Assembly (NCBI GenBank): GCA_963727895.1
Contig: CAVSHT010000018.1
Span: 1 to 62,129, forward strand
Origin: an uncultured Methanosarcinaceae archaeon
GTDB lineage: Archaea; Halobacteriota; Methanosarcinia; Methanosarcinales; Methanosarcinaceae
Direction: 5' to 3'
DNA: 62,129 nt
Both the position numbers and the translations under genes were made by a program. A model generated the notes under the pieces. The model worked only from the letters and a program-made list of their open reading frames with translations, did no database searches and was not told the DNA's origin. Below, one piece after another: positions 8,022 through 54,633 of the stretch (within the stretch, counting starts at the first letter, position 1; each line of letters begins with the position of its first letter).

Positions 8022-8035
8022 TTTACAATTGTGAA
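8022..8035. promoter_or_regulatory. Sulfur-box palindrome (1 mismatch)
   Basis: TTTACAATTGTGAA 7 bp upstream of the third tRNA-Cys. Confidence 0.8.
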
Positions 8036-10400: not shown

Positions 10401-11654
10401 ATGTCAGAAAGAGAACTTACTGAAAATGAACTAGTTGAAGAAAGAATTGACCTATCACGGGCTACATGTCCTAACAGAGAACAGAGGGCAAACGGTATAA
10501 ACGTCTGGTATGGAAAAGCCAGCGATCTTGTAAAAGAAGCTCGTTCAGGCTGCTTGAGGCAAAGAGAAAGGAATTTTCAGCAGTCGAGTGGTTGTGTTCT
10601 GAACTTCTATCTTTCAGTAAGGATCGGAACAATCCGTGACGCTGTGGCTATATATCACGCACCTGTTGGCTGCTCGTCTGCAGCACTTGGCTACCGTGAA
10701 CTCTACAGTGAAGTCCCAATAATACATGTAAATACCTCAGGGTTTGCAGGGACCTCATACGATGGCTATGAGTACTTTTTCGATTCTGTAATCGATCAAC
10801 TCCTAGAAAAGACTCCGAAAGAAAAAGGATTGGTAAATGTATTCGGGATAGTTCCCTTCCAGCATATATTCTGGAAGGGAGCAGCAAGGGAAATAAAAAC
10901 ACTACTCGAAAAAATAGGCTTGAAGGCAAATCTGATCGTAGGAGAGTTTGATGCTCTTGAAAACCTAAAAAAAATCCCAGCTGCCGAATATAACATTGTT
11001 CTTTCAAGCTGGATCGGGCATAAAACGGCAGAAAAACTCGAAGAAAAGTTCGAGATTCCTTATATTTCCTTCCCAGGAGTACCGACAGGTCCAAAACAGA
11101 CCTCTGAATTCCTTAGAGTTATAGGAAAAAGACTAGATGTTTCAGCCGATGTCATTGAAGATCTTATTGCCAGAGAGGAAAAGCGTGCTTATAGATTTGC
11201 AGAATACGTTGGCGACATACTTCTGATTACCAGACCGCATCCTTATTTTGCGGTTGTCGCTGACAGTAGTTCAGCTGTGAGCATTACAAAATACCTTGCA
11301 AACGAGATGGGTTATCTGCCTGAAGTTGTTCAGATAACAGATAATCCACCTGAAGAAGCCCGTGAACTGATAAATGAGGAACTAACGACAGGTCTTGAAA
11401 CCCCGGCATGGCCTGAGATTATATACGAAGTGGATGCATATCGGATCCGGGAAAATTTAAAAGATAGAAATTTCCTGTTCCTGCTTGCAAGTTCTCTTGA
11501 AGCTAATATATCAGGTCCAGAATATAACGCTCTGTACGTGACGATTTCATTCCCTTCATATAACCGCGTGATACTCGAACACAATTATGCAGGGTTCAGT
11601 GGAGGGCTTACTCTAGTTGAAGACGTTATGAGTACATATGCAGGGCCTCTGTGA
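10401..11654 (+). CDS. Nitrogenase component-1-like protein; apparent MarD(N-terminal)::MarK(C-terminal) in-frame fusion
   Basis: aa 1-102 alpha-like (REQR..I..W.GKASDL.KE, Cys65, HAPVGC91); aa ~104-417 beta-like (PIIHVNTSGF...YAGFSGGLTLVED). The segment carrying the third P-cluster Cys is missing. Confidence 0.75.
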   Translation: MSERELTENELVEERIDLSRATCPNREQRANGINVWYGKASDLVKEARSGCLRQRERNFQQSSGCVLNFYLSVRIGTIRDAVAIYHAPVGCSSAALGYRELYSEVPIIHVNTSGFAGTSYDGYEYFFDSVIDQLLEKTPKEKGLVNVFGIVPFQHIFWKGAAREIKTLLEKIGLKANLIVGEFDALENLKKIPAAEYNIVLSSWIGHKTAEKLEEKFEIPYISFPGVPTGPKQTSEFLRVIGKRLDVSADVIEDLIAREEKRAYRFAEYVGDILLITRPHPYFAVVADSSSAVSITKYLANEMGYLPEVVQITDNPPEEARELINEELTTGLETPAWPEIIYEVDAYRIRENLKDRNFLFLLASSLEANISGPEYNALYVTISFPSYNRVILEHNYAGFSGGLTLVEDVMSTYAGPL

Positions 11655-11995: not shown

Positions 11996-12056
11996 TTCAC
12001 AATTGTTAATAATATTCAGTTCACAACTGTCAATTTGAGTAGTTTACAATTGTAAA
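11996..12056. promoter_or_regulatory. Three tandem sulfur boxes
   Basis: TTCACAATTGTTAA (11996), TTCACAACTGTCAA (12020), TTTACAATTGTAAA (12043), directly after TATA-like CTATATAA. Confidence 0.8.
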
Positions 12057-12129: not shown

Positions 12130-13122
12130 ATGGACAAAGAACTTAATGCAAATATTAAGGCATCTCTGCTGAGTATAGGTAGTGCTCAGGTTGATAAATC
12201 CCTCCTTCCTGATCAGAATACCAGCAAGGCTACAGCCGGACCAGGGGCAGGAGGTTCCTCAATCTTTTTAAAGTCCGGAAATCAGAGAGTTAGGCTTACA
12301 ATCAATGATGCTTCTCCTTTGAAAGTAATACAGGAAGATGAACATGTAGTAGTCATTAAAGACGAAAAAGTGATTTCCAGAGGAATACTTGAACATCCAC
12401 TTTGTCATTGTCCGGAACAGGCATATATTACGTTATCTGAAAAATGCATATACGATTGCCAGTTTTGTCCTGTGCCGAAAATGCACGGTGGAATAAAGGA
12501 CAGTACAAAAGTACTCAAGATGATTGAGGAAGCTTATGCAACAGGTGAACTCAAAGCAATTTCTCTTACCAGTGGAGTAGCTGTTTCACCAAAAAAAGAA
12601 GTTGAGAGGGCAGTAGATATAATAAAACAACTTACGCGTGAGTATGATCTCCCAATAGGAGTTTCAGTTTATCCCACAACAGGTTCTTCAGAAGAACTTT
12701 ATTCTGCGGGTGCATGCGAGGTAAAATACAATGTTGAAACGATGGATTCAAACCTTTTCCGCCGATTCTGTCCGGATCTCTCGCTTTATACAGTTCTTGA
12801 TGCTCTCGACAACGCAGTTAATGTTTTCGGCAGAAACAAGGTTTCTTCAAACTTTATAATAGGTCTTGGAGAAAGTGATGAAACCGTTCAAAAGGGTATC
12901 AAGCTACTTACAAGTCGATGTATAATTCCAATTCTCAGACCTATTTCTCCTAGCTCCCTCAGGAAAGATGTGAAGATAACCAGGCCAGATGCTTCACGGC
13001 TTTTAAAACTTGGAGGCATGCTAAAAGATACGCTTGACCATGAGTCACTTTGTGTCGATAAATCCAAAACAATGTGCCTATTCTGCACTGGCTGTGACTT
13101 AACACTTCATAAAGATATTTGA
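12130..13122 (+). CDS. Radical SAM protein (biotin-synthase-related, function unknown)
   Basis: CIYDCQFC motif; YNVET; IIGLGE; C-terminal CxxCxxCD. Confidence 0.85.
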   Translation: MDKELNANIKASLLSIGSAQVDKSLLPDQNTSKATAGPGAGGSSIFLKSGNQRVRLTINDASPLKVIQEDEHVVVIKDEKVISRGILEHPLCHCPEQAYITLSEKCIYDCQFCPVPKMHGGIKDSTKVLKMIEEAYATGELKAISLTSGVAVSPKKEVERAVDIIKQLTREYDLPIGVSVYPTTGSSEELYSAGACEVKYNVETMDSNLFRRFCPDLSLYTVLDALDNAVNVFGRNKVSSNFIIGLGESDETVQKGIKLLTSRCIIPILRPISPSSLRKDVKITRPDASRLLKLGGMLKDTLDHESLCVDKSKTMCLFCTGCDLTLHKDI

Positions 13123-13349: not shown

Positions 13350-13363
13350 ATCACAATTGTGTA
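13350..13363. promoter_or_regulatory. Sulfur box (2 mismatches) between TATA and start codon
   Basis: ATCACAATTGTGTA; TTTATAAA at 13333..13340; ATG at 13365. Confidence 0.7.
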
Positions 13364-15611: not shown

Positions 15612-16856
15612 ATGAAAACTATTGAAGAGATAAATAAGAAAATCGCTTCCAAAGAAGCGATAATCTTGACTGCTTCTGAACTTAAGTCCATGGTACGTGA
15701 TGGAAAAGATGTGACTGTTGATGATGTGGATGTGGTCACTACCGGGACATTTGGCGTGATGTCAGGCACAATGGCAGTTATGATGGTGCCAGTAGCCGAA
15801 AAGTGCAGTTTTGAAAGGGCAGACGCCATCTGGCTAAATGGAGTACCTGCGCAACCAGGTCCCTGTCCTAACGAAAGACTTGGGGTTGTAGACCTCGTGA
15901 TAAATGGAACTGCTCATGCCGATGACCAATATGGTGGAGGGCACCTTTTCCGGGACCTTGTAAAAGGCAAAACCATTGATGTGCTTGTGGAAGCTCATGG
16001 CAGGCGTTATGAAAATCAGGTTATGCTTGACGAGATTGAATTTGCCAGGATTATTACAACAAGACTTGCATTTAAAAATTACCACGCACTGATTAACCCT
16101 ACTTCCTCTACAATTAGCACTATATTTTCTGTAACAGGCTTAACAGGTCCTTTTACAGAAACAACAGTATCAGGATGCGGTGAAATAAATCCGCTGCAAA
16201 ATGATACTTCTCATAGATCAATAGGAGTGGGCACAAGGGTTCTATTAAATGGCGCACCTGGTTATATCATGGGAAAAGGAACTAGAACAAGTCCTGATAA
16301 GCCGAATGTATCTGCTTATGCAGACATGAAAAAGATGGACCCAACCCTGATGGGTGGAATGAAGACCTCACATGGGCCTGAATGTCTGACATCACTTACA
16401 GTTCCTATCCCTGTCCTTGATGAAGAGATTCTTTCGGGATTAAAAATCCTGGACCAGAATGTTTCATTATCCGTATCAGACATAAACGGACGCACTGAAC
16501 ACGCAAAAGTTAATTACGGAAATGTATGGGGAGGTACTGATAAGGTTATCCGTGTTGAAAAAGAAAAGTGCTTGCATCATCCAGACTGTGCCGCAATGCG
16601 CACATGTCCTATGGAAGCAATTTCAAATAATTGTGTTATCAACAGAGATCTCTGTATTAATTGTGGAACCTGTACACTTCAATGTTCTGAAGGTGTATTC
16701 CGTGCAAAGCTTGGGTCGATAAAGCTGGCTGAAGGAGTTTTACCCATATCTTTGAGGCAGTCAGACAGGGCAAGGGCAGAAAGACTCTGTACTATGCTTA
16801 AAAACCGGATTTTGAAGCAGAAGTTTGTACCTACAAAAATGTTGGAGCCTCTCTAA
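15612..16856 (+). CDS. DUF39/homocysteine-biosynthesis family protein with ferredoxin domain (methanogenesis marker 16-like)
   Basis: KTIEEINKKI, DVVTTGTFGVMSG, GPCPNE, SGCGEINPLQND; C-terminal CxxCxxC ferredoxin. Confidence 0.85.
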   Translation: MKTIEEINKKIASKEAIILTASELKSMVRDGKDVTVDDVDVVTTGTFGVMSGTMAVMMVPVAEKCSFERADAIWLNGVPAQPGPCPNERLGVVDLVINGTAHADDQYGGGHLFRDLVKGKTIDVLVEAHGRRYENQVMLDEIEFARIITTRLAFKNYHALINPTSSTISTIFSVTGLTGPFTETTVSGCGEINPLQNDTSHRSIGVGTRVLLNGAPGYIMGKGTRTSPDKPNVSAYADMKKMDPTLMGGMKTSHGPECLTSLTVPIPVLDEEILSGLKILDQNVSLSVSDINGRTEHAKVNYGNVWGGTDKVIRVEKEKCLHHPDCAAMRTCPMEAISNNCVINRDLCINCGTCTLQCSEGVFRAKLGSIKLAEGVLPISLRQSDRARAERLCTMLKNRILKQKFVPTKMLEPL

Positions 16857-20569: not shown

Positions 20570-22430
20570 ATGAGACTTTATTGGATTGACACCTTAAAAG
20601 GAATTGGAATTATGCTAGTGGTGCTTGCACACTATAGTTTACAGATAGCATTTGACACTTACATATTTTCATTTCATATGCCGCTCTTTTTTTTCATTTC
20701 AGAATTTCTATTTGATTTTGGTAAATACACAGGATCAGCTTCAACCTTTGTGAAAGGAAGATTCAAGTCTCTTATCGTACCTTATTTCTGTTTTGCAGTA
20801 ATAACCTGTGTTTTTTGCTTTTTGCTGGATGAATTATATACGCCAGAAATCACAAGTATTAAGTTTTTTGAAAACAGCATAATTCATGGAATTTCTCATA
20901 TTCTTGTTGCTTTCGGTCCTGCTATTTCTTATAATCCACCTCTGTGGTTCCTGACCTGTCTTTTTGTAACTGAACTTCTCTTTTATGGACTGGCAAAGAA
21001 GTACTATGGAGAACCAAAAAAACTTGTATTCTGGCTTATTATAGCCGGAGTAATCGGGTACCTTTACCCAGTTTACGTGTCTTTTAGGAGACTCTGGAAT
21101 GTAGATGTAGCTCTGGCTGCAATAGTTTTTTATGGAGCTGGAAATCTATTCAGACAGGTTACAGAATCGGAATCAGAATCAGAAACAGAATCAAGTTTCA
21201 GCTTGAAATTGAATTCTGGATTTATAGAGAAGTTTTCTAGCGTTGAAAAATATCTACCTGTTATTGCTGTTCTTTTGAGTCTGCTATATCTAGGATACCT
21301 TCTGAAGTTTCCAACAGCTGACAAAGTTAACATGAATGTTCTGAAATATGGAGCTTTCTTTTCGTTTTATCTGTTGGCTTTCGCAGGAATATTTACCTTT
21401 GTCTACCTTTCCAAGAGAATTGTGAGCTCAAAAGTTTGAGTATTATGGGAGAAATAGTTTGATAATACTTGCATTTCATTTTCCTCTAAAAGATGTCTTG
21501 ATAAAGCTTGCAATAATCATTTTAGGCATTGTTAATTAAACATAGTTAACTCTTTATTTCTGTATTTCATCAATAGAATAACCGAGTACTTTAGCATTTC
21601 AAGACTTTTTGTATAACACTTTGTCTTTCTTCTCAATCTTGCTAGAAAATGCCTCAATATGCTGTTATATCCCTCAACTGTAAATGTTTCTGCTTTTGAT
21701 TGAGTATGGATCTTTTTTGGAATAAACTCTGCATATGCTCTCCAGTGATCTGTCATTACTTCTCCAATCTCTTTTTTCTTCACTTTTTCCCAGAGTAGTT
21801 TTCCAGTTTCTGTTCCTCTGCTACCAAAAGAGCAATTGATGAACTTTTTCCCAACTCTATCAACAGCAATCCAGATCCAGCAATATTTTTTTTGTTACCG
21901 ATGTAAGTGTGCATTTCATCCATTTCAACAATAGATATCTCATTTTCACTTTTTAGGTCCTCTAACTCCTGACCAAATTTCTTTATCCATCTTTGGACAG
22001 AAACATGACTCACCCCTAAAAATCGTCCTATTGAACGAAAGCCCAATCCTTCAAGATAGAGTTGTAAAGCCTGTCTTTTTACAAAAGCGGAAAAAGCAGT
22101 TGATTTTAGCTCTACTGTATAGTTATAGCCACAATCAGAGCATTTGTACCGTTGACGCCCGCCAACTATACCGTTCTTTTTGTGACTGGAACTATTGCAT
22201 CTGGGGCAGTTCATGAAGAAATATACTTTCTAATAGTATATAACTATGTTTAAGTATCAAAGCCTCATTTTTTAGGTGTTGACATTGAATATATTCATTA
22301 CAATGCTGTGTTTGCGCTGGGCTTAACTGTTCTGAGCCTTATTCTCTTAGTGCCTGTTATCTATATTATTAACAATTATTTTCCCTTTTTACTAGGTAAA
22401 AAAGGATTATACAAGATTTTGAGAGTATAA
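20570..22430 (+). pseudogene. Acyltransferase family 3 membrane protein, frameshifted and IS-interrupted
   Basis: WIDTLKGIGI, FHMPLFFFIS, LWFL motifs; YGRNSL in a shifted frame; C-terminus resumes after 22264. Confidence 0.8.
21525..22264 (-). mobile_element. IS1-family insertion sequence (740 bp)
   Basis: InsA-like CxxC/HTH ORF and InsB-like ORF joined by an A-run slippery site; ends GGCATTGTTA.../GGCTTTGATA...; flanks TCATTTTA and TCATTTTT. Confidence 0.92.
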
Positions 22431-24418: not shown

Positions 24419-24432
24419 TTCACAATCGTGAA
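24419..24432. promoter_or_regulatory. Sulfur box (1 mismatch)
   Basis: TTCACAATCGTGAA upstream of larE-sufS-fdhD. Confidence 0.75.
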
Positions 24433-24497: not shown

Positions 24498-25295
24498 ATG
24501 GAAAAAGAAAATGTGCAGGGTACGTTGCTCAAAGAACTTGAAGGATTAGATTGCTTACTTGTTTCATATTCTGGAGGAATAGACAGTACTTTACTTGCGT
24601 TACTTGCACAAAAAGCACTCCAAGACAAGGTAAAATGTATACTTTTTGATACGCCTCTTGTCCCCAGAAAAGCTGTCAAGGATGCAAAGGAAACCGCACG
24701 CAAGTTTGGATTATCCTGTTCTATAATCCCTTTTCCTATTCTGGAAAATAAAGAATTTACAAAAAACAGCCCCAATCGCTGTTATATATGCAAAAAACAA
24801 TCTGCTAAGATGCTAAAAGCTCAGGCTGAAAAACTGGGAATTTCAAAAATAGCTGATGGAATCAATGCTTCTGATAGCAATGAATACCGACCCGGACTTC
24901 AAGCAAGTAATGAAGAAAGAATTCTCCATCCTTTTCTGTCACTTGGAATTCAAAAGAAGTAGATCAGGCAAATGGCTCAGGACTGTGGCTTTGATTTCTG
25001 GGATAAACCGTCAGCTTCATGTCTTGCATCACGAATTCCATATGGGGATGAAATAACAATTGAAAAGCTGCAAAATATAGAAAAAGCAGAGAATTTGTTG
25101 CATGATATGGGGTTTTCAAATCTGTGTGTAAGACTGTATGATAAAATTATAAGAGTTGAGTTGATAGCTGAGGAAATTGAAAAAGCAGTAAACATGCGAG
25201 ATCAAATTGTAGAGGCATTGCAGGTATGTGGCTTTTCTTATATTACTCTTGACCTTAAAGGATACAGAAGCGGGAGTATGGATGAAGTGTTATGA
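24498..25295 (+). CDS. larE: ATP-dependent sulfur transferase LarE, interrupted by an in-frame TAG at 24960..24962
   Basis: SYSGGIDS PP-loop, RCYICK, YRPG, PSASCLASRIPYG, GYRSGSM; both ORF halves are in the same frame. Confidence 0.85.
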
Positions 25296-26473
25296 GTTTA
25301 GAAGACCTTCTTGCTGATTTTCAAATACTCAGGTACCTCCATTATATGGATAGTGCAGCAACAAGCCTTGTTCCTGAACCTGTTATAGCTGCAATGAATG
25401 AATATGACCGCCAGTACCGTGCCAACGTTGGCAGGGGAATGCACAGGCTCACAAGAGTTGCAACACAGAAATATCAGGATGCACATGAGTTAGTTAGCGG
25501 TTTTATTGGTGGGAACAAGGGCACTACAGTATTTACAAAAAATACGACGGAAGCTATCAACATGGTTGCCTATGGGCTTGACTGGTACCCAGGAAACAGG
25601 ATAGTAACAACAGTTGTAGAGCATCATTCCAACCTTCTTCCCTGGCTTCGACTGCGCCAAAAAGGTGTTGAGGTTATCATTCTCCAGCCTGATGAAACCG
25701 GGATTTTTGATATTGAGAGATTTGGAGAAGCAATTACAGCTAATACAAAGCTTGTTGCGGTTAGCCATGCCTCAAACATACTTGGCACTGTGCAACCTGT
25801 CAGGAAGATTGCTGAGATTTGTAAAGAGCAGGGAGCATATTTTCTGGTTGATGGAGCACAGTCCGTTCCCCATTTTCCTATAGATGTTCGGTCTATTAAA
25901 TGCGATTTTTTATGTTTTTCAGGTCACAAGATGCTCGGACCGACTGGCACTGGAATACTGTGGATGCGAGATCAGCTTATTTCTCCATCTATTCTTGGTG
26001 GAGGCACAGTTGAAGATGCCACTACTGAAGGATATACCTTAACTGACGGTTACCAGAGATTTGAGGGAGGAACCCCAAATATTTCAGGTGCAATCGGACT
26101 TGGACAAGCTGTGAAATATCTTGAAAGCCTTGAGATGGACGTTATCTTCAAGCATGAACAGAAATTGACTGAACATCTTCTCAAAGGGCTTTCTGAAATC
26201 GAAAATGTTACTATCTATGGACCTCAAACTACAAAAAACAGAATAGGAGTAGTCTCATTTACCATAGAAGGAATTCATCCCCATGAGGTAGCCTATTTGC
26301 TTGACGAAAGAGCAGCAATTCTTGTCCGTTCTGGAGATCATTGCTGTATCCCTTTAATGAAACACCTGGGACTCCAAAGCGGTAGTGTCAGAGCAAGCCT
26401 TTACATATATAATACCCTGGAAGAAATTGACCTTCTTCTTGAATCAATTGAAGAAATCGCACGCATGGCATAA
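25292..26473 (+). CDS. Cysteine desulfurase, SufS-like
   Basis: DSAATS, EHHSN, SGHKMLGPTG, RSGDHCC. Confidence 0.92.
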   Translation: MSLEDLLADFQILRYLHYMDSAATSLVPEPVIAAMNEYDRQYRANVGRGMHRLTRVATQKYQDAHELVSGFIGGNKGTTVFTKNTTEAINMVAYGLDWYPGNRIVTTVVEHHSNLLPWLRLRQKGVEVIILQPDETGIFDIERFGEAITANTKLVAVSHASNILGTVQPVRKIAEICKEQGAYFLVDGAQSVPHFPIDVRSIKCDFLCFSGHKMLGPTGTGILWMRDQLISPSILGGGTVEDATTEGYTLTDGYQRFEGGTPNISGAIGLGQAVKYLESLEMDVIFKHEQKLTEHLLKGLSEIENVTIYGPQTTKNRIGVVSFTIEGIHPHEVAYLLDERAAILVRSGDHCCIPLMKHLGLQSGSVRASLYIYNTLEEIDLLLESIEEIARMA

Positions 26474-29216: not shown

Positions 29217-29956
29217 GGCATTGTTAATTAAACATAGTTAACTCTTTATTTCTGTATTTCATCAATAGAATAACCGAGTACTTTAGCATTTCAAGACTTT
29301 TTGTATAACACTTTGTCTTTCTTCTCAATCTTGCTAGAAAATGCCTCAATATGCTGTTATATCCCTCAACTGTAAATGTTTCTGCTTTTGATTGAGTATG
29401 ACTCTTTTCTGGAAGAAACTCTGCATATGCTCTCCAGTGATCTGTCATTACTTCTCCAATCTCTTTTTTCTTCACTTTTTCCCAGAGTAGTTTTCCAGTT
29501 TCTGTTCCTCTGCTACCAAAAGAGCAGTTGATGAACTTTTTCCCAACTCTATCAACAGCAATCCAGATCCAGCAATATTTTTTTTGTTACCGATGTAAGT
29601 GTGCATTTCATCCATTTCAACAATAGATATCTCATTTTCACTTTTTAGGTCCTCTAACTCCTGACCAAATTTCTTTATCCATCTTTGGACAGAAACATGA
29701 CTCACCCCTAAAAATCGTCCTATTGAACGAAAGCCCAATCCTTCAAGATAGAGTTGTAAAGCCTGTCTTTTTACAAAAGCGGAAAAAGCAGTTGATTTTA
29801 GCTCTACTGTATAGTTATAGCCACAATCAGAGCATTTGTACCGTTGACGCCCGCCAACTATACCGTTCTTTTTGTGACTGGAACTATTGCATCTGGGGCA
29901 GTTCATGAAGAAATATACTTTCTAATAGTATATAACTATGTTTAAGTATCAAAGCC
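29217..29956 (-). mobile_element. IS1-family insertion sequence (740 bp)
   Basis: Near-identical to 21525..22264; perfect 8-bp target duplication AAAAATCG. Confidence 0.95.
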
Positions 29957-29967: not shown

Positions 29968-30915
29968 TCAATAATCTGCTTGACTTTTGAATAGATTCCC
30001 TTTCCAGGGTTCATCAAGAATATTGACATTGACTTTTTCTATCCCGCTCATACTAAGGATTTTTCGCCTTACCTGGTCTTTAAGGTAATCAATCATAGGG
30101 CAGGCATTTGTTGTTAATACAAGGTTTACATCTACATTTGACCCATTAACTACTACTTCTTTTACAAGTCCCAGTTTGACTATATCCATACCGACTTCAG
30201 GGTCAACCACACCTTTTAGCAGAGAATAAATTTGCTCATCTTTAAGAACAGTTCCTTGTGTAGTAGTGTTTCCGTGTCCAGAAACTAGTTCTTCATGAGC
30301 TTTAAATTGCTCTTCCAATCTACTAAGCCGGTCAAGAAGCTGTCCCATAACAGTAAGTACAGGGTCAGGAAGCTTGTTATGATCAAGTTGCCCTACAGAA
30401 ACCGAGGGTTCTGGCTCTGCTATCTTTGCAGGCACTCCAACGACCGTAGCTCCAGGTGGAACTGACCGAATCACAACTGAACCTGCGCCTATTTTAGCGC
30501 CTCTTCCAACCTTAATTGGTCCAAGTACAGATGCTCCTGAGCCAATGACTACGTCATTTTCGATTGTAGGATGACGTTTTGTCTTTTCAAGAGCTGTCCC
30601 CCCTAACACAACTCCCATATATATCAAAACGTCGTCACCTACCTCAGCGGTTTCTCCGATCACTACTCCTGATCCATGATCTATGAAAACTCGTTTTCCA
30701 AGCTTTGCACCTGGGTGTATTTCAATACCTGTTAACATCCTTGAAATGTGAGATAGCAGACGGGCTAGAAAATAGAAGTGTCGATTCCATAGTGAATGAG
30801 ATATCCTATGTATCCAGACAGCATGCAGGCCCGGATAGCAGCAGATTACTTCAAGCTTAGACCTTGCTGCAGGGTCTTTTTCAAAAACAGTCCTGATATC
30901 TTCCCTGATTCCCAT
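29968..30915 (-). CDS. cysE: Serine O-acetyltransferase with C-terminal DUF59 (Fe-S assembly, SufT/MIP18-like) domain
   Basis: [24 protein letters not shown]; then [16 protein letters not shown]...LTTNACP...EPW. Confidence 0.92.
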
Positions 30916-30962: not shown

Positions 30963-31162
30963 AAATAAATCAATTAAACAGTTACTGATGAGTAAGTCAA
31001 ACAGTTGCTGATAAATCAGTCAAAAAGCTGCTGATAAATCAGTCAAAAAGCTGCTGATAAATCAGTCAAAAAGCTGCTGATAAATCAGTCAAAAAGCTGC
31101 TGATAAATCAGTCAAAAAGCTGCTGATAAATCAGTCAAAAAGCTGCTGATAAATCAGTCAAA
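30963..31162. repeat. 23-bp tandem repeat between cysK and cysE
   Basis: GCTGATAAATCAGTCAAAAAGCT: six perfect copies from 31007, one partial, and ~2 degenerate copies to the left. Confidence 0.95.
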
Positions 31163-32080
31163 CAGGTCAGTACTCAGATAACGCTCTCCTGTATCAGGCA
31201 GGATCGCAATAATGGTCTTCCCTTTCATTTCGTCTCTGGATGCAACTTGCAGAGCAGCATAAGTAGCAGCACCTGAAGATATTCCTGCAAGGATACCTTC
31301 TTCCTTTGCCAGACGTCGGGCTGTGGCAGCAGCATTGTCTCCAGTTACTTTGATTATCTCATCGATCAGTTTAAGTTGAAGTACATCTGGAACAAAACCT
31401 GCACCGATACCCTGAATTTTATGTGGAGCCGGGCTTCCACCGCTTAGAACTGGAGATTCAGCAGGTTCGACTGCAATTGCCTTAAAAGAAGGCTTCCGTT
31501 TTTTGATTGCACTGGCAATACCTGTAATAGTTCCACCTGTTCCCACACCCGCTACAATGACATCTGCTTTTCCGTCCGTATCTCTCCAGATTTCTTCGGC
31601 TGTTGTTCTACTGTGGATCTCAGGGTTTGCAGGGTTCTGAAACTGTTGGGCTACGTAGTAAAGCGAAGGGTTGTCAGCAACCATCTGCTCGGCTTTATTT
31701 ACTGCACCTTTCATTCCTTCTGCTCCGGAGGTAAGTACTAGCTCTGCTCCAAGAGCTTTCAGTAGTTTTCTTCGTTCTATTGTCATTGTTTCAGGCATAA
31801 CCAGTATGAGTTTATATCCACGAGCAGCAGAGATGCAGGCGAGCCCAATGCCGGTGTTGCCGCTGGTTGCTTCAATAATAGTGGTACCCTTTTTTATTTT
31901 TCCTTCAAGTTCGGCTTTTTCAATCATTGCCAGCCCTATTCTGTCCTTCACACTTCCCATAGGATTGAAGGACTCTACCTTAACCAATACGTCTGCTTGC
32001 AGACCTTCTGTTAAGCGGTTTAACCTGATAAGAGGTGTATTTCCAATTGTCCAGGTTATATCAGAATATATTCGTGACAT
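31154..32080 (-). CDS. cysK: Cysteine synthase A
   Basis: [42 protein letters not shown]. Confidence 0.97.
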
Positions 32081-32260: not shown

Positions 32261-32274
32261 TTCACAATTGTGAA
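32261..32274. promoter_or_regulatory. Sulfur box (perfect; extends to 20-bp AAATTCACAATTGTGAATTT)
   Basis: Upstream of cysK-cysE. Confidence 0.85.
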
Positions 32275-32405
32275 TTTCTTTTATGTTTAATATAGTTTTG
32301 TATTGAGGAACTATGACAAAGAACAAAAAAAGTCCAGAAACTAATTTAAAATCAATGGAGTTTAACAGAATTTAGAAAAGCAGGAGAAACCGATAAAATT
32401 CGGCT

Positions 32406-32810
32406 TTATGCTCCAGATTTTTCGTTATCTTCAACTTTATCTGTCATTTTATTTTCCTTTATATCATCGGCCTGGGTTTTTGAACCACAGCTGCTATTGC
32501 ATCTATTTTCAATACCTCTTGCACTTACGCAGATATCACAGATTCTTACTACAAAATCCGAGACATTGTTGTCTATCAGGTCCTGAGCGAGTTTTTCAAC
32601 TAATTCTTTTGTTTCGCCCTGAAACTCGATTCTGTATCCTCTTTTTCCCGAAATATACTGAGAAACTGCAGATGGTGCAATTCCGAGCAATTTTGCGGCT
32701 GCTGCCTGCGACTGCCCTTTTTTTACAAGTTCAATTGCAAGACTGGCTCTTATTGCAGGGACCAGATCCCACACAATCTTCTGACATGGAGTTTCCACAA
32801 TAATCATCAC
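32406..32810 (-). CDS. Archaeal HTH transcriptional regulator with Cys residues
   Basis: PC..IVW..VPAIRA.LA, SQAAAAKLLGIAPSAVSQYISGKRG HTH, ICDIC. Confidence 0.85.
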   Translation of the reverse strand: MMIIVETPCQKIVWDLVPAIRASLAIELVKKGQSQAAAAKLLGIAPSAVSQYISGKRGYRIEFQGETKELVEKLAQDLIDNNVSDFVVRICDICVSARGIENRCNSSCGSKTQADDIKENKMTDKVEDNEKSGA

Positions 32811-32820
32811 TTTTTGAGAT

Positions 32821-32834
32821 ATTACAATTGAGAA
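32821..32834. promoter_or_regulatory. Weak sulfur box (3 mismatches) at the regulator promoter
   Basis: ATTACAATTGAGAA between the minus-strand TATA (~32845..32860) and the start codon. Confidence 0.55.
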
Positions 32835-33000
32835 CGAATATACCTTATATACATATAAATTATTATCAGACTAAAAAATTCTGACATTTTTACATTAGTA
32901 TGGTTATTTGAAAAACGACATCTATATTTTTTAGTTGTCAAAATGACTCTTTAAAGGATTAGGCTAGAATTACTTACCGTTAAAAATTAGGGTAAAAGTC

Positions 33001-36000
33001 TCAGTGATATCCATTTACTCCAGTTTTTTCAAAAACTGTAGGATACTTCTCTTTTAATTGTGTGGCCTTGTCGTAAGCTCCCATAGAACGATAGAGTGCT
33101 GCGAGATTGTTTAGTGAATTTGCAACATCTGGGTGTTCAGGTCCCAGAACCTTTTCACGAATGTTAAGTGCTCTTTGAGAAAGTGGGAGTGCTTTGTCGT
33201 AAGAGCCCATAAAACGATAGAGTCCTGCGAGATTGTTTAGTGAATTTGCAACATCTGGGTGTTCAGGTCCTAAAACCTTTTCATAGATTTCCAGTGCCCT
33301 TTGAGAAAGTGGAAGTGCTTTCTCATAAGATCCAATATTATAATAGAGTCCTGCAAGATTGTTTAGGGTTGTTGCAACATCTGGGTGTTCAGGTCCCCAA
33401 ACATTTTCATAGATTTCCAGTGCCCTTTGAGAAAGTGGAAGTGCTTTTTCGTATTTTCCTACATTGTTATAAAGTAATGCGAGATTGTTTAGGGTTGATG
33501 CAACATCTGGGTGTTCAGGTCCCCAAACATTTTCATAGATTTCCAGTGCTCTTTGAGAAAGTGAGAGTGCTTTTTCGTATTCTCCCATATTGTTATAAAG
33601 TAATGCAAGATTGTTTAGGGTTGTTGCAACATTTGGGCGTTCAGGTCCCAGAACTTTTTCACTAATGTCAAGAGCCTTTTGATAAAGTGGAAGTGCTTTT
33701 TCGTATTCTCCCATATTGTCATAGAGTCCTGCAAGATTGTCTAGAGTTGTTGCAACATATGGGTGTTCAGGTCCCAGACAATTTTCTATTATATTCAGCG
33801 CTCTTTGATAAAGTGGAAGTGCTTTTTCGTATTCTCCCATATTGTCATAGAGTCCCACAAGATTGTTTAAGGTTGTTGCAACATATGGGTGTTCAGATCC
33901 CCAAACATTTTCATAGATTTCCAGTGCTCTTTGATAAAGTGGGAGTGCTTTTTCGTATTCTCCCATATTGTCATAGAGTCCTGCAAGGTTGTTTAGGGTT
34001 GTTGCAACAGATGAGTGCTCAGGTCCCCAAACATTTTCAATTATTTCCAGTGCCTTTTGATAAAGTGGGAGTGCTTTGTCGTAAGAGCCCATAAAACGAT
34101 AGAGTCCTGCGAGATCGTTTAGGATTGTTGCAACATCTGGGTGTTCAGGCCCAAGAACTTTCTTTCTTATATCCAGAGCGTGATTCAAAAACTGTTCACA
34201 GTCTTGGAAGCTTGCACGTTCATACAGATAGCAACCTGTAGAATTTAGCAATTTTGCAGCCTCTTCAGTCTCAATATCCCATTTTTTGAGATATTCTTCA
34301 CATGTTTGAATATGTGGAAGAAGCTTGTTACATAGTTCCCAATTTTCATACTCAGCTTCTGGAAATACACGGTTCAAAGCTTTAACAACACGTTCAGCCC
34401 AGAGTTTCTGTGTGTTTTCATTTATTCTATCTCTAATAACAGCTTGTACAAGGCGGTGAATGTCATACGTATAATTGTCTATATCACGAGTAATTAAGGA
34501 ATATTGTATAAGTGGTTCAAGAATTTCATCTAAAACTAGATGATCATTTTCAATATCTTCGAGAGCTGAAAACATTTTAGGTCCCAATTCTTTTGAACCT
34601 TTTATAAAAATATCAACTGGAATTTGAGAGGGACTGAGAAAAGCACTTACAAATAATATTTCCGCTGAAGCCTTTGAAATGTGTTCTACCTGTTCAAAGT
34701 TCAAAATCCATGTTGTAGCTACTGATTTTGGATATTTATTTGGTACAATTTGATATTTTTCCAGTAACTTCAATCCTCTTTTTTTGTAGCTTGAAAGATA
34801 ATCTTCAAAACTACATTCTATTTTTCGAATATAGGCTCCAGCTTGCTCAATTGCCAATGGCAGGTAATCAAGTTCATATGTAAGTTCGTCAAGTGCTTTA
34901 AGTTCTGAGGGCTTTAAGTTTTTACGTCCAGTACGCTTTATAAAAAACTCTCGAGCCTCGTCAGGGGTCATTTTTTCCATTTCAATCTGGTTTGTGATAT
35001 CTAATTCTTCAAAAAAATGTGCTCTTGAAGTTAGTAATACATGTCCTTTAGGATCAAAAAGCATTAAATTTTTTAGGACTGACGGTTCATCTGCATTGTC
35101 GAAAACCAGCAACCAGTTTTCGTTAGTTTTAAGCCAGTTTAATACAGCAGAAACTATAAGGTTCTGGTCAGAGTCGTTTTTCACAGGCAGATCTAATAAA
35201 TTTGCTATACTCACATAGCCTGAAATAACTGAATCTTCCGAATCAGCTGTTACCCATAATATATATTCATATTCAGAACAATAACTATAAGTGTATTCAA
35301 CCGCAGTTTGTGTTTTACCAATACCTCCAAGTCCGCATACTGCTATTGGTTGAGATACAGCAACTGAATTATCTGAAAGAAGAGTCTCATGGATTTGTTT
35401 TAATTTGTCTTCACGCCCTGTAAAACGAGTATTCCTTGAGTAGGGAACATTTGAAATTGTGGTTTTTGATTTCTGGTCATGCTTAGATGAAATATTAGAA
35501 TTAGAAGAAGAGTTTTCTTCATTTTTTCATCAAGAACAGCAGTTATTTCAGGTGGAAACTTCTCAGCACGGGGATGAACCACAACATCAGATTTGTTATC
35601 AATTATAATGGGAATTCTTTCTCCAACAATGACATCTAAAACAGGTTTATTCTTGTTTATAAAATTAGTAACATAATCTTCACGCACAAAGGAACCATAT
35701 AATTTAAAGTCCTCAGGACACAAATCAACTTTTAAACAGACCTTGTTAGAATCAACAAAATTGATTTTGGTATAGTTATGTAACCACCAGTAAACACTAT
35801 TCTCACGGGTTATAGAAAATATCTTTACAGTATTGATTTTTACACGTGTACTGCTTATATCAAGTTCATCAGCAAAACGTAGAAGTGAAGCAACCAGCTT
35901 TTTGCGACTATTAGGATCACCACTGAAATAATCAGGACAATCATTAATTGATAATTTAGAGTGGAATTTACATACATCCATTAAATCGTCCACAAGATCA

Positions 36001-36125: not shown

Positions 36126-36865
36126 GGCATTGTTACTTAACTAGATCTAGTTCTTTATTTCTGTATTTCATCAATAGAATAACCGAGTACTTTAGCATTT
36201 CAAGACTTTTTGTATAACACTTTGTCTTTCTTCTCAATCTTGCTAGAAAATGCCTCAATATGCTGTTATATCCCTCAACTGTAAATGTTTCTGCTTTTGA
36301 TTGAGTATGACTCTTTTCAGGAAGAAACTCTGCATATGCCCTCCAGTGATCTGTCATCACTTCTCCAATCTCTTTTTTCTTCACTTTTTCCCAGAGTAGT
36401 TTTCCAGTTTCCGTTCCTCTGCTACCAAAAGAGCAGTTGATGAACTTTTTCCCAACTCTATCAACAGCAATCCAGATCCAGCAATATTTTTTTTGTTACC
36501 GATGTAAGTGTGCATCTCATCCATTTCAACAATAGATATCTCATTTTCGCTTTTTAGGTCCTCTCACTCTTGATCAAATTTCTTGATCCGTCTTTGGACA
36601 GAAACATGACTCACCCCTAAAAACCGCCCTATTGAACGAAAACCCAATCCTTCAAGATAGAGTTGTAAAGCCTGTTTTTTGACAGAAGCAGAGATAGCAG
36701 TTGATTTTAACTCTACTATATAGTTATAGCCACAATCAGAGCATTTGTACCGTTGACGCCCGCCAACTATACCATTCTTTTTGTGACTGGAACTATTACA
36801 TCTGGGGCAGTTCATGCAGAAATATACTTTCTAATAGTATATAACTATATTTAAGTATCAATACC
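36126..36865 (-). mobile_element. IS1-family insertion sequence, premature stop in InsA-like ORF
   Basis: Same ends and length as the other copies; flanks GAATATTC and TTATTTTT do not match. Confidence 0.9.
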
Positions 36866-44708: not shown

Positions 44709-45448
44709 GGTATTGTTACTTAAATATATCTAGTTCTTTATTTTTTTATTTCATCAATAGAATAACCGAGTACTTTAGCATTTCAAGACTCTTCGTATAA
44801 CACTTTGTCTTTCTTCTCAACCTTGCCAGAAAGTGCCTCAATATGCTGTTATATCCTTCAACAGTATACGTTTTTGCTTTTGATTGAGTATGGATCTTTT
44901 CTGGAAGAAACTCTGCATATGCTCTCCAGTGATCTGTCATCACTTCTCCAATCTCTTTTTTCTTCACTTTTTCCCAGAGTAGTTTTCCAGTTTCTGTTCC
45001 TCTGCTACCAAAAGAGCAGTTGATGAACTTTTTCCCAACTCTATCAACAGCAATCCAGATCCAGCAATATTTTTTTTGTTACCGATGTAAGTGTGCATCT
45101 CATCCATTTCAACAATAGATATCTCATTTTCACTTTTTAGGTTCTCTCACTCTTGACCAAATTTCTTGATCCATTTTTGGACAGAAACATGACTTACCCC
45201 TAAAACTCTTCCTATTGAGCGAAAACCCAATCCTTCAAGATAGAGTTGTAAAGCCTGTCTTTTTGCAGAAGCGGAAAAAGCAGTTGATTTTAGCTCTACT
45301 GTATAGTTATAGCCACAATCAGAGCATTTGTACCGTTGACGCCCGCCAACTATACCGTTCTTTTTGTGACTGGAACTATTGCATCTGGGGCAGTTCATGA
45401 AGAAATATACTTTCTAATAGTATATAACTATGTTTAAGTATCAATGCC
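44709..45448 (-). mobile_element. IS1-family insertion sequence with premature stops
   Basis: 740 bp; AATTCCT on both flanks; inserted in the 3' end of the GATase gene. Confidence 0.9.
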
Positions 45449-46702: not shown

Positions 46703-48256
46703 TTAACCGAACCTTCCAATAAGTGCGCTTATGCTTTCACTCGTAACCATGCCTATTACGTGGTTTTCAGAGTCAATTACAGGAAGCGCGGAAATCGAAT
46801 AATCTTCCATTATAGAGGATGCAATTTCTATTTTTTCACCTGCATATACGTATTTTACGTCACGGGTGATTATCTCATCTAATCCAGTAATTTTGCAGGC
46901 AACGGCTTTTGTAATATCCCATGAAGTGACTATACCTTCAAGCTTTCCGTCCTCAGATACTACAGGTAAATGATTTACTTTCTTTTTTACCATGAGTACT
47001 GAGGCATTTTCGATTGTTTCATTTCTGGAAACCGAATAGAAATTCTGGTACATGATGTCCCCTACAAGAATCTGAGAGAGAAAACCCCTTATAAGGTAGT
47101 TAAGCTGCCCTTCTTCGAGCAGAAAAGCATCATGTCCATACTGGGATCTGATTTCCTCGTATTTTGCATCAACCCCGTTTGCAGTAAGTGCAGACACGAT
47201 TTCCTGGGATTGATATGGAGGGTATAACCAGTCTGAGGTTATGGAAATCACAAGGTATTTTGCAGTAACCCCTGAAAGACCCTCTATAAGAGACTCGTTC
47301 TTTGAAAGGTCAAAGAAATCAACTGATTTTGTAATATAAAGATAAGAATTTGCATCAAAACGCTTAGTAAAGGTATTTCCCTGGTGATTCAGATAGCTTT
47401 CAACCTGAAAATTTGAGAAATGATCTGGAAAGGTCTCTGAAGAAATTTCAGGCAGATTCGAATCTTCTTTTTCCTGCTGGTCTCTTCCGAACTTCTTCTG
47501 CATCGAAGCATCGCTCAGATATGTAATGTGGCCTATCATGCGGGCAAGCGCTAAGCCTTGTGCAGGGATTTCCTTTCCGTAATAATTTCCTCCGTTCCAT
47601 TTTGGATCGTCAGTTATAGCTTTTCTGCCAATTGCCCCGAATGCGATTTGCTGAGGAGTTGAAGATGCAGTTGTTGCGATTGCAATAGCCTTTTTAACCA
47701 TTTTGGGATAACTAACCGTCCATTGAAGCACCTGCATTCCACCCATTGAGCCGCCTGCAACTGCAAAAAGCTGTTTTATTTCCAGGTGCTCAACAAGCTT
47801 TTTCTGCGCATTTACCATGTCCGCGATAGTAAGTATGGGAAAAGAAATACCGTAGGGTTTTCCTGTTTCAGGGTCAATTGAAGAAGGACCTGTAGAACCT
47901 TTACAGCTTCCGATTATATTTGAACAAATGATACAATATTTTTCTGTATCAAAGGCTTTATTAGGGCCGATTACGATGTTCCACCAGCCTGGTTTTTTGT
48001 CGCCTGCATGAAATCCGGCAGCATGGGAATCGCCTGTAAGAGCATGGCAGATCAGGATAACATTACTCTTATCCACGTTCATCTTCCCATACATCTCGTA
48101 CTCGATCTTAACGTGGGAGAGTGTCTTTCCACTTTCGAGCCTGAAAATTCCGGGGATTTCATAGTTCATTGAACGGACTATCCCAAGATTCTGGCCTTTT
48201 TTTCCCGAAAAAAAGTTTTTAAAGGAAGGAATCTGGATAGAAGTTCCCATGCTCAA
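46703..48256 (-). CDS. metX: Homoserine O-acetyltransferase with C-terminal CBS pair
   Basis: [29 protein letters not shown] motifs [14 protein letters not shown]. Confidence 0.95.
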
Positions 48257-49608
48257 ACCCCTGAAAGTGCCTGCTCAATATCGGCAATAAGGTCTTTTTC
48301 ATCCTCAATTCCTATAGAAAGCCTGATAAAGTCCTCAGTTACTCCACAGGCTGCCTTTTCGTCTTTTGATAGCTGTTCATGAGTGGTTGAAGAAGGATGG
48401 ATTACAAGGCTTTTTGCATCCCCTATATTTGCAAGATGGGAAAATATCTCAAGTCCTTCAATAAACTTTTTGCATTCTTTTTCTCCGCCTTTGATTCCAA
48501 AGCCTATTAGTGCACCATATCCTGATTTCAGGTATTCCTTTGCAAGTTTATGGCTGCCGTGAGATTTAAGTCCAGGATAGGAAACCCAGGAAACTTTAGG
48601 ATGATTTTCCAGGAATTTTGCAATTTCAAGAGCGTTATCACAGTGTTTTTTCATTCTGAGTGGTAGAGTTTCAAGCCCCAGGGTAAACAGGAAAGAGTTG
48701 AAAGGAGAAATACATGCTCCTGTATCCCTGACGAACTGCACTCTGGCTTTTGTAATAAAGGCTGCTTTTCCAAAGGTTTCCTTGTATTTCATGCCGTGAT
48801 ATCCTGAATCAGGCTCGCAGATTTCAGGGAATTTTTCAGGGTTCCAGTCAAAATTTCCAGAGTCAACAATAACTCCACCTATAGAAGTTCCATGGCCGCC
48901 AATGAATTTGGTTGCCGAATACACAACAATATCAATTCCATGTTCGATTGGCTTTAAGATTAGGGGAGACACCGTATTGTCCACAACAAGAGGAATTCCT
49001 GCGGCATGAGCAATCTTTGCTAGTTTCTCAAAATCAGGTATATCAAGCCCGGGATTTCCTATTGATTCCACATAAATGGCTTTTGTTTTTTCGGAAATTG
49101 CGTTTTTGAATTCCTCCGGATTACAGGTATCTACGAATTTTACATTTCTTCCAAGTTTTGGGAAAGTGTAATTGAAAAGCTCGTAGGTTCCTCCATAAAG
49201 CTTGTCCCCTGAAACGATCTCATCCCCAGGCCTTGTAAACGTGAGCAAAGCAGTTGTAATTGCAGCCATTCCTGAGGCTACTGCAAGGGCGCCTATACCT
49301 CCATCGAGAGCAGCTATCCTTTTCTCAAACACGTCGGTTGTGGGGTTCATAAGGCGTGTATAAATATTGCCTTCTTTCCTGAGCCCGAAAAGGTCGGCAG
49401 CTTCCTCAGCGTCCTTAAATACATAAGCTGCGGTTTGATAAATCGGAACTGACCTTGCTCCTGTGGTCGGGTCAGGTTTTGCACCTGCATGCACGGCAAG
49501 GGTAGAAGCTCCAGGGCTTTTAAACTTCTTTTTTGTACTGCATTTCTTTTTTTCTTTACATTTTTCTTCACATTTTTCTTCATTCTGGTTTCTTTTTTCT
49601 TTCGTCAT
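48253..49608 (-). CDS. metY: O-acetylhomoserine sulfhydrylase (copy 2)
   Basis: [30 protein letters not shown]; overlaps the metX start. Confidence 0.93.
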
Positions 49609-49695
49609 TTTATCTAACCTCAATACTAAATTTTCCTGCTATCCCGCCGCCTATATCTAAGGGTCTTCTATTCGATTATTTCAATGGTTTTGGTA

Positions 49696-49811: not shown

Positions 49812-49825
49812 TTCACAATTGTGAC
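49812..49825. promoter_or_regulatory. Sulfur box (1 mismatch)
   Basis: TTCACAATTGTGAC next to TATA-like 49831..49840; weak second site at 49789..49802. Confidence 0.8.
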
Positions 49826-53710: not shown

Positions 53711-53724
53711 TTCACAATTGTGAA
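53711..53724. promoter_or_regulatory. Sulfur box (perfect)
   Basis: TTCACAATTGTGAA between TTATATAA (53742..53749) and the iscS RBS. Confidence 0.85.
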
Positions 53725-53892: not shown

Positions 53893-54633
53893 GGCTTTGA
53901 TAATTAACTATAGTTATTTATTATGAGAACCTATATTTCTTCATGAACTGCCCAAAATGTAATAGTTCCAGTCACAAAAAGAATGGTATAGTTGGCGGGC
54001 GTCAACGGTACAAATGCTCTGATTGTGGCTATAACTATACAGTAGAGCTAAAATCAACTGCTTTTTCCGCCTCTGTTAAAAAACAGGCTTTACAACTCTA
54101 TCTTGAAGGATTGGGTTTTCGCTCAATAGGAAGAGTTTTAGGGGTAAGTCATGTTTCTGTCCAAAAATGGATAAAGAAATTTGGTCAAGAGTTAGAGGAT
54201 CTAAAAAGTGAAAATGAGATATCTATTGTTGAAATGGATGAAATGAACACTTACATTGGTAACAAAAAAAATATTGCTGGATCTGGATTGCTGTTGATAG
54301 AGTTGGGAAAAAGTTCATCAACTGCTCTTTTGGCATCAGAGGAACAGAAACTGGAAAACTACTCTGGGAAAAATTGAAGAAAAAATAAATTGGAGAAATG
54401 ATGACAGATCACTGGAGAGCATATGCAGAGTTTTTTCCAGAAAAGATCCATACTCAATCAAAAGCAGAAACGTATACTGTTGAAGGAGATATAACAGCAT
54501 ATTGAGGCACTTTCTGGCAAGGTTGAGAAGAAAAACAAAGTGTTATACGAAGAGTCTTGAAATGCTAAAGTACTCGGTTATTCTATTGATGAAATAAAGA
54601 AATAAAGAGTTAACTATGTTTAGTTAACAATTC
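53893..54633 (+). mobile_element. IS1-family insertion sequence, degenerate, opposite orientation
   Basis: InsA-like ORF 53943..54377; InsB part broken; right end eroded. Confidence 0.88.

Follow-up and report, generated by a model that had tools for sequence, protein, structure and literature searches.

Methanogens need exceptional amounts of sulfur and of Fe-S (iron-sulfur) clusters; the question raised by the stretch of DNA considered here is which protein controls the genes that provide them. The stretch (the window) is the whole of contig C18, 62,129 bp in length, of a Methanosarcina assembly (G000; 3.67 Mb, 19 contigs, 84% complete). It carries an open reading frame (ORF) for a small helix-turn-helix (HTH) protein, here called REG, together with copies of a 14-base palindrome, the sulfur box TTCACAATTGTGAA. 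No regulator of methanogen sulfur assimilation or Fe-S biogenesis was found in the open literature, and the terms transcriptional regulator, transcription factor, regulon, IscR and helix-turn-helix are all absent from a wide-ranging review of methanogen Fe/S pathways. Likewise, no published description of the REG protein, its motif or its regulon was found in the open full-text literature, subscription journals not being covered, and no open paper has CACAATTGTG together with Methanosarcina. Computation shows the site itself, that it is restricted to sulfur genes, and that it occurs together with REG, and close to it, across two orders; it is probable, judging from these observations, that REG recognizes TTCACAATTGTGAA, acts on its own promoter and governs a regulon for sulfur trafficking.

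REG is encoded on the minus strand at 32406..32810 when read from a GTG (134 amino acids, aa), or as 133 aa from the ATG at 32807; a GTG at 32798 may be the alternative true start, giving M-E-T-P-C, as most orthologs begin in this way. It is the ortholog of M. acetivorans MA2719, which table S4 of PMC12068725 places between MA2718 (iscS2) and MA2720 (cysK). In the window, REG lies directly upstream of cysK (31154..32080; TIGR01139, E 1.6e-140) and cysE (29968..30915; TIGR01172), all three genes being on the minus strand. The REG promoter reads, on the gene strand, TTTATATGTATATAA, 10 nucleotides (nt), TTCTCAATTGTAAT, 10 nt, GTGATG: a TATA-like element (32844..32859, minus strand), recognized from the sequence, ends 10 nt upstream of a box at 32821-32834 (ATTACAATTGAGAA, that is, TTCTCAATTGTAAT on the gene strand), which has 3 mismatches to TTCACAATTGTGAA. 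An earlier reading of this DNA (the original prediction) had described a Cys-bearing HTH protein at 32406..32834 that directly precedes cysK-cysE, has a degenerate box between its TATA and start codon, and is the only recognized DNA-binding regulator in the window. The ORF, its HTH_3 match, the gene order and shared strand, and the box were all recovered, and no DNA-binding Pfam family was matched by the other ORFs of the window, apart from the HTH ORFs of IS1-type transposases.

Taken alone, the 3-mismatch site of REG is weak evidence. Sites were scored by their mismatches to the consensus TTCACAATTGTGAA. With up to 3 mismatches, the box occurs at 23 sites in the window, compared with 8.5 +/- 3.1 in dinucleotide shuffles, and none of 100 shuffles reached 23; four of the window sites are perfect and five have a single mismatch. 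Across the whole 3.67-Mb assembly, 10 sites with at most one mismatch were found, 9 of them on the window contig, against 3 for the reversed control pattern, and the sole site outside the window (C11:192295) lies inside an ORF. When two mismatches are allowed, the assembly contains 41 sites, and 14 of these fall inside the window, which makes up 1.7% of the assembly; the outside 2-mismatch sites that were inspected lie in coding or unrelated regions, with one of them (C12:139526) preceding a 514-aa gene. The box is nearly confined to this 62-kb sulfur island.

Comparison of the REG promoter across two orders puts the degenerate site into context. In the Methanosarcinales (20 loci and the window), a box with at most 2 mismatches is present within 120 nt upstream of 15 of 21 orthologs, and one with at most 3 mismatches in 18 of 21; the corresponding background frequencies, from 20,000 random 120-nt pieces of G000 outside the window, are 0.05% and 1.0%. 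A one-genome-per-species scan using an 11-sequence alignment yielded 495 relatives, among which 80 loci were kept: 39 from Methanosarcina(ceae) and 41 from Methanomicrobiales (Methanoregula, Methanolinea and Methanosphaerula; 51-66% identity). At the 38 usable Methanosarcina(ceae) loci, the position of the site is constant (TATA, 10 nt, box, 10 nt, GTGATG); 29 of these sites have up to 2 mismatches, 35 have up to 3, and one is perfect. The Methanomicrobiales promoters are cleaner: within 160 nt upstream of REG, a perfect TTCACAATTGTGAA is found in 34/41 loci, a box with at most one mismatch in 37/41 and one with at most two in 40/41. As a rule the box lies 13-16 nt past a TATA-like element, and in many cases a second, weaker box comes next, ahead of the ribosome-binding site. 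Since the same position holds better boxes in other Methanosarcina(ceae), the 3-mismatch site of the window is not a chance match but belongs, as a weak representative, to a series of homologous operators. The autoregulation of REG is strongly supported, in that its own promoter carries the operator found before the predicted target genes.

The second line of evidence is the joint distribution of gene and motif. In a sample of 121 Methanosarcinales genomes, the REG protein query gave matches in 67. Within the family Methanosarcinaceae (34 genomes, i.e., 33 and the window's own), these matches are split by a clear gap into orthologs (E <= 7.5e-26; 29 genomes) and a paralog (E >= 4.9e-15). Five genomes, all 99% complete, have the paralog only (G067, G004, G099, G105 and G116; matches at E >= 5.6e-12). 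The 29 ortholog-bearing genomes contain 145 sites with at most one mismatch against 29 for the reversed control pattern, while the five genomes without an ortholog contain 6 against 5 (4, 2, 0, 0 and 0 per genome). The few sites of the latter group are isolated, none being near any of 27 reference sulfur genes, and no box with up to 3 mismatches was detected upstream of SepCysS (all five genomes) or of iscS-iscU (four genomes; none found in G067). The original prediction had named gene-motif co-occurrence across methanogens as a check, and persistence of the motif in genomes lacking the gene as an argument against itself. When this check was run, no box enrichment appeared in the five Methanosarcinaceae without an ortholog, and the box was seen to follow the ortholog in both Methanosarcinales and Methanomicrobiales; its proposal of an autoregulated sulfur-box factor thus gains support from the REG promoters of two orders and from the co-occurrence of ortholog and box. 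That REG itself binds TTCACAATTGTGAA is, on these distributions, very likely.

A different factor could, in principle, bind the palindrome and control the REG promoter, with REG being merely one more member of the regulon. Many sulfur genes are boxed, so a box before another gene of the island is no proof of autoregulation, and the phyletic co-absence could reflect joint loss of the whole module. Several observations speak against such a factor, which we consider very improbable. The box remains at the REG promoter when the neighbors change, these being, depending on the genus, cysK, iscS2, SepCysS, LarE-like genes or no reference gene at all. No other DNA-binding gene is available in the window beyond the transposase ORFs mentioned above, and the paralog is not the binder, because it is present in all five genomes that lack box enrichment. 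Furthermore, the box variant changes together with the recognition helix of REG. The helix APSAVSQY(I/L)SGKRGYRIE is nearly identical in both orders with the common box, whereas the diverged family f3 has the helix TQAAVSQYVSNKRGSKI and the box variant TTAACAATTGTTAA; this exact 14-mer occurs 4 times in the 121 genomes, and three of the four copies are situated 27-28 nt upstream of an ortholog (G018, G053 and G065). In genus g10, the sole exact genomic copy of the variant palindrome precedes the REG ortholog. Box specificity appears to co-vary with the recognition helix, although this is a single co-variation event and suggestive only.

If REG binds the box, its predicted regulon can be read from the boxed genes of the window. 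A perfect box at 32261..32274 is located 181 nt before the ATG of cysK (cysK-cysE), and a TATA-like element, CTATATTAAA (32286-32295), ends 11 nt upstream of it; this layout recurs in three other loci (L001, L002 and L004). CysE, a serine acetyltransferase, has a C-terminal FeS_assembly_P/SufT-like domain fused to it (residues 227-298). Another perfect box (53711..53724) sits at the 5' end of iscS2 (52517-53680/53731), which is followed by iscU2, thiF and nadA. A box with one mismatch (49812..49825) lies 6 nt after the TATA-like TTATATATA and upstream of metY2 (48253-49623) and metX (46703-48256). The MetX protein (homoserine O-acetyltransferase, minus strand) ends in a C-terminal CBS domain pair, which is likely an allosteric module. 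Three boxes at 11996..12056, spaced 24 and 23 nt apart, come directly after the TATA-like CCTATATAA upstream of a radical-SAM gene (12130-13122), and a box with 2 mismatches (13350..13363) stands directly before the ATG of an ABC-ATPase gene that heads a row of HypB-like, FeS-domain and MMP16 (15612-16856) genes. MMP16 is reported to be the main coenzyme M (CoM) synthase of M. acetivorans (PMC12068725). Finally, a box with one mismatch at 24419..24432 lies upstream of a LarE-like gene split in two (24498-24962 and 24972-25295), after which come a SufS-type desulfurase (25292-26473), fdhD, thiM and thiE. These two plus-strand ORFs cover profile positions 5-151 and 157-258 of the LarE-type PP-loop sulfur transferase (TIGR00268), and separate LarE-like parts were also observed in 37/41 Methanomicrobiales loci and several Methanosarcinaceae loci; because the two parts recur separately in other loci, the split looks conserved and not like a local frameshift.

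Further boxes lie before tRNA genes on the minus strand. Three tRNA-Cys(GCA) genes are boxed: 6547-6618 (box 6659-6672, 40 nt upstream), 7021-7091 (box 7099-7112, 7 nt upstream) and 7944-8014 (box 8022-8035, 7 nt upstream). Directly downstream of the first, and in the same boxed unit, are a SepCysS paralog (5152-6534) and a second O-acetylhomoserine (OAH) sulfhydrylase (3867-5159), both on the minus strand. The assembly contains six tRNA-Cys(GCA) genes among 53 tRNAs, the highest copy number of any tRNA in it. The three located outside the window (C4:187652-187723, C12:163999-164070 and C12:164135-164206) have no box, and the three boxed genes are divergent isodecoders, unlike each other and unlike the three elsewhere. 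A further box (6892-6905) between two of the tRNA-Cys units has no obvious target, and two boxes, at 8705-8718 (2 mismatches) and 8739-8752 (perfect), are 44-78 nt upstream of a 95-aa ORF (8374-8661, minus strand) that has no Pfam or NCBIfam match; the boxes at 6892-6905 and 8705-8752 may possibly mark an unannotated small gene or RNA. A 108-aa protein resembling NifX and the C-terminus of NifB is encoded downstream of a boxed tRNA-Cys (7527-7853, minus strand), and near it are the divergent nitrogenase-like genes NflH (9157-10098, minus) and NflD (10401-11654, plus). This nif-like pair (9157-11654) was considered for membership in the regulon and rejected, as the divergent nflH/nflD intergenic region contains no box with up to 3 mismatches. 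Taken together, the predicted regulon would encompass cysteine and homocysteine synthesis, Fe-S assembly by the iron-sulfur cluster (ISC) system, a second SepCysS with dedicated tRNA-Cys isodecoders, the LarE-like/FdhD/thiamine genes and, in G000, the MMP16 cluster.

Much of this set is found again elsewhere, where boxes precede cysK, iscS2, metY, SepCysS and nadA. The usual layout in the Methanomicrobiales consists of thiF-iscU2-iscS2, a box, and REG with LarE-like N- and C-terminal parts and fdhD, with nadA further on; iscS2 is present in 32/41 of these loci and the LarE-like parts in 37/41. In the alternative layout, tRNA-Cys-SepCysS-metY-metX is followed by two boxes and REG, and the boxed tRNA-Cys/SepCysS/metY/metX unit recurs in other genera. 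The tRNA genes are boxed with similar regularity: of the loci with a tRNA-Cys, 12 of 13 in Methanosarcinales show a box with up to 2 mismatches at 8-43 nt from the mature 5' end, on its upstream side, and 5 of 6 in Methanomicrobiales a perfect one 6-7 nt before that end. One SepCysS clade has been linked to a gene for tRNA-Cys and to sulfur genes (Mukai et al., 2017; PMC5424206), and the main text of that paper, in which the terms promoter and regulat- do not occur, offers no regulator or motif for it.

The island in G000 itself appears rearranged. In other Methanosarcina, REG is divergent from iscS2 at a distance of about 200 bp, whereas in the window the two are 20 kb apart with insertion sequence (IS) copies between them. 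At least five IS1-family copies are present (21532-22214, 29224-29906, 36133-36815, 44746-45398 and 53943-54377), each of them with an InsA-like zinc-ribbon/HTH ORF and a DDE_Tnp_IS1 fragment. The position taken by iscS2 in other Methanosarcina is occupied by a 737-aa protein (33001-35214, minus strand), the direct upstream neighbor of REG, which contains ten near-identical TPR_10/TPR_12 repeats and a DUF7779 domain. As regards transcription, small shares of the window were found in 15 metatranscriptome runs, and contigs from two studies match 32504-32778 and 32519-749 inside the REG ORF, with 3 differences each; strand, start and level are not readable from such contigs and DNA carry-over is possible, so they were not counted as proof of REG expression. 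MA2719 is listed as a "transcriptional regulator" with a log2 change of ~1.2-1.3 (q ~0.05-0.08) in a CoM-starved mutant in table S4 of PMC12068725; that change says nothing about sulfur control. A full-text search for the locus tag found one paper only, PMC7585200, and there outside the main text.

What the binding of REG would do can be judged from where the boxes lie. At nine promoters of the window, a TATA-like element ends 0-25 nt upstream of the box (radical-SAM, ABC, LarE-like, cysK, REG, metY2, iscS2 and two tRNA-Cys). In archaea, an operator over the transcription start usually blocks RNA polymerase recruitment. Since most boxes are placed 0-25 nt downstream of TATA-like elements, over the expected start, REG is fairly likely to act as a repressor, a judgment made from box position relative to these elements only. 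Boxes that cover this expected start, or stand 7 nt ahead of the mature tRNA-Cys, would exert the repression, and REG would bind them as a dimer, as the palindrome itself suggests; homodimer prediction with residues 1-112 gave scores of 0.27 and 0.01 against a mark of 0.42 and was counted neither way. Alternatively, REG could be an activator or dual regulator that turns on the sulfur genes when sulfur is limiting. The usual binding site of an archaeal activator is upstream of the TFB-recognition element (BRE) and TATA, and the box is immediately upstream of the own-promoter TATA in genus g5 and in one g6 locus; a distant box is also seen in the Methanomicrobiales, where 150-180 nt separate the single box from the start of iscS2. 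Activation is nonetheless improbable in view of the nine window promoters, the boxes 7 nt before two mature tRNA-Cys 5' ends, the three tandem boxes that cover the region after the radical-SAM TATA element, and the order of TATA, box, second box and ribosome-binding site in Methanomicrobiales REG promoters.

A putative repressor of this kind needs a signal, and the protein sequence offers candidate residues. Pfam HTH_3 (PF01381) matches REG marginally at residues 29-57 (E 4.5e-5; 23.8 bits, the gathering score being 23) and partially (profile positions 6-34 of 55), and NCBIfam profiles gave no match. At E <= 0.01, REG showed no match to Rrf2 (PF02082) among the 7 Pfam families listed, and none to the ArsR-type winged helix HTH_5 (PF01022). 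A word-indexed search returned 272 relatives; the best 120 of these are 72-100% identical, are called "transcriptional regulator" or unnamed, and, where organisms are named, come from Methanosarcina and one Euryarchaeota metagenome-assembled genome. An exhaustive HMMER search of cluster representatives returned 863 proteins at E <= 1e-3, mostly of 100-140 aa. Of 43 of these relatives that were aligned, 38 match HTH_3 (best E 7e-9) and 7 match HTH_5 weakly, while Rrf2 is missing from the 25 families that they match most frequently. Their alignment shows P7 and C8 without exception, and conservation of at least 90% at C90 and C93. ESM Atlas matches consist of unnamed archaeal HTH_3 clusters only.

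The cysteines of REG, numbered from the ATG at 32807, are C8 (after Pro), C90 and C93 (a CxxC), C103 and C107; the N-terminal PC, the CxxC and the two further Cys noted in the original prediction are thus all present, and its view that the protein belongs to another family than CymR/IscR agrees with the missing Rrf2 match. C107 was seen here only in Methanosarcina orthologs and one other locus (L006). The set of four (N-terminal Cys, CxxC and a fourth Cys) is found in 21/21 Methanosarcinales orthologs and in 80/80 further ortholog loci, with the fourth Cys placed 9-11 residues past the CxxC in all but four of the 101 orthologs (2, 12, 12 and 14 residues). Among 106 full-length representatives of the wider family, the N-terminal Cys motif is present in 76 and the CxxC in 81, and the Cys after it comes most often 10 residues later. 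REG would belong to an uncharacterized, archaea-wide family that combines a Cro/C1-type HTH with a Cys-x81-Cys-x2-Cys-x9/10-Cys set. In the AlphaFold2 model, residues ~5-100 are confident (mean predicted local distance difference test score, pLDDT, of 82), with helices at 7-29, 34-41, 45-53, 64-78 and 85-97, and the loop that includes the fourth Cys (residues 103-115) is poorly modeled, its pLDDT being under 50. Foldseek retrieved nothing from the PDB at E <= 1e-3. VIA-align found generic HTH domains only (DeoR, ParB, KorB and SorC DNA-binding; residues ~11-63) at middling Z scores of 5.2-6.3, the best being the DeoR DNA-binding domain (Z 6.3), and all fold matches fell within residues 2-63. 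Sequence and profile searches of the PDB gave designed repeat proteins and generic HTH proteins, with HigA-type matches reaching E 1e-3, and for the last two helices and the Cys loop (residues 64-107) the PDB offers no relative by sequence or fold.

We propose that the four cysteines hold an Fe-S cluster, or carry another sulfur-dependent modification, so that DNA binding would report sulfur or Fe-S sufficiency: the holo form would bind and repress, and the regulon would be derepressed on shortage. An Fe-S cluster is the most economical sensor of sufficient sulfur and iron given the four invariant Cys, the iscS-iscU neighborhoods, and the paralog found in iscS-iscU operons of two genera; that such a cluster gates DNA binding is nevertheless a proposal in which we have somewhat less than even confidence. 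Known persulfide-type sensors release DNA when sulfur is high, and sensing of that type would for this reason fit the logic of an assimilation regulon less well. Another reading is that REG binds the box while its four Cys hold structural zinc, sulfur status being read through a small ligand such as O-acetylserine or a partner protein. CysK is the partner protein of CymR in Bacillus, and REG abuts cysK in Methanosarcina; this adjacency is not general, however, as iscS2, SepCysS or LarE-like genes adjoin REG elsewhere. Structural zinc with another signal fits the family-wide Cys conservation equally well, for the N-terminal Cys and CxxC are conserved in the broader family, including in paralogs beside SUI1 and other non-sulfur genes. 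One such paralog in G000 (C12:355443-355832, minus strand; 33-38% identical) is located between SUI1 and a Cys-rich 408-aa gene; in two genera without an ortholog, the paralog is the third gene of iscS-iscU operons (L039:705-1058 and L040:3044-3391). The latter arrangement ties the family to Fe-S assembly and so counts against zinc, as does the pattern of one CxxC and two lone Cys, which is unlike the usual paired-CxxC zinc ribbon; the low confidence of the C103 loop is what would be expected if a cofactor orders it. On balance, the zinc alternative is a real possibility, though less likely than not.

Several points weigh against the proposal of an autoregulated, sulfur-sensing repressor. The whole case rests on sequence, and the compared genomes are relatives from about eight lineages, such that the counts overstate independence. 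Part of the co-absence of gene and box is island loss, given that G067 also has no close iscS2, and the same phyletic pattern would result if REG had been lost jointly with a further, unseen factor. In G000 the own-promoter box differs from the consensus by 3 mismatches, and it is decayed in 2 of the 38 Methanosarcina(ceae) loci (5 and 6 mismatches), and the orthologs L006, L007 and L013 have no box within 120 nt. In genus g5, the position directly upstream of the TATA fits repression less cleanly, and control of iscS2 in the Methanomicrobiales is uncertain with a box 150-180 nt from the start. The cysteines, lastly, are also conserved in paralogs in non-sulfur contexts, which fits structural zinc as well as a sensor.

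Functionally, REG resembles IscR, CymR and SufR, and it is not a member of the Rrf2 family (IscR, CymR, NsrR and RirA) or of the ArsR/SmtB-type sensors of sulfur or persulfide (the class of SurR, BigR and SqrR). Like IscR (Rrf2; Escherichia coli and other bacteria), it would be a small autoregulated factor encoded beside iscS-iscU, with Cys ligands that could report Fe-S sufficiency, and it would repress Fe-S assembly genes when these clusters are replete. The two differ in fold class (Cro/C1-type HTH_3 in REG), in the arrangement of their ligands (C8...C90-x2-C93-x9-C103 in REG; three closely spaced Cys in the C-terminal part and one His in IscR), in the predicted REG regulon, which also includes Cys/Hcy (homocysteine) synthesis, SepCysS and tRNA-Cys, and in their hosts, those of REG being archaea. 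SurR of the Thermococcales is likewise an archaeal sulfur-response regulator with a CxxC, but it is a two-winged-helix protein in which the CxxC is a redox switch, and it governs hydrogenase versus S0-reduction genes through a GTTn3AAC motif; fold class and motif both differ from those of REG. With NrpR, the nitrogen repressor of methanogens, REG would share a lineage-wide distribution and palindromic operators just after the TATA of a nutrient-assimilation regulon, whereas NrpR belongs to another family, senses 2-oxoglutarate and acts on nitrogen genes. With generic Cro/C1 (XRE) HTH proteins, among them HigA antitoxins and the DeoR DNA-binding domain, REG has only the HTH core in common (residues ~2-63), and residues 64-107 of REG set it apart from them. 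CymR (Rrf2; Bacillus and Staphylococcus) lacks cysteines for sensing and depends on CysK, its co-repressor, while REG is of another family and has four conserved Cys, and REG and cysK are neighbors only in Methanosarcina and at a few loci elsewhere. What the two would have in common is the role of a master cysteine/sulfur repressor with a palindromic operator and a gene linked to cysK function (for CymR, see also PMC13689551).

The broadest interpretation of these data, which we regard as unlikely when all of its parts are taken jointly, is that the REG family is the missing master sulfur/Fe-S sensor of methanogens in at least two orders. Binding to TTCACAATTGTGAA would be gated by a cluster that a new C-x81-CxxC-x9/10-C module holds on a Cro-type HTH; when sulfur is short, Cys-tRNA synthesis would be re-routed through transcription of dedicated tRNA-Cys isodecoders and the second SepCysS; and the paralog branch in iscS-iscU operons would be an archaeal analog of IscR. 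Short of this, the analysis singles out MA2719 of M. acetivorans, an organism open to genetic work, as the candidate, along with an exact operator and a regulon prediction conserved in Methanosarcinales and Methanomicrobiales, and sulfur sensing in methanogens thereby becomes experimentally addressable. The predicted regulon links pathways that have been studied separately, namely CysK/CysE, OAH sulfhydrylase, ISC, the second SepCysS, LarE-like/FdhD sulfur transfer and MMP16, the CoM synthase. The predicted transcriptional control of specific tRNA-Cys genes would be unusual, and with REG the transcription factors that sense metals and sulfur would gain a new sequence family.

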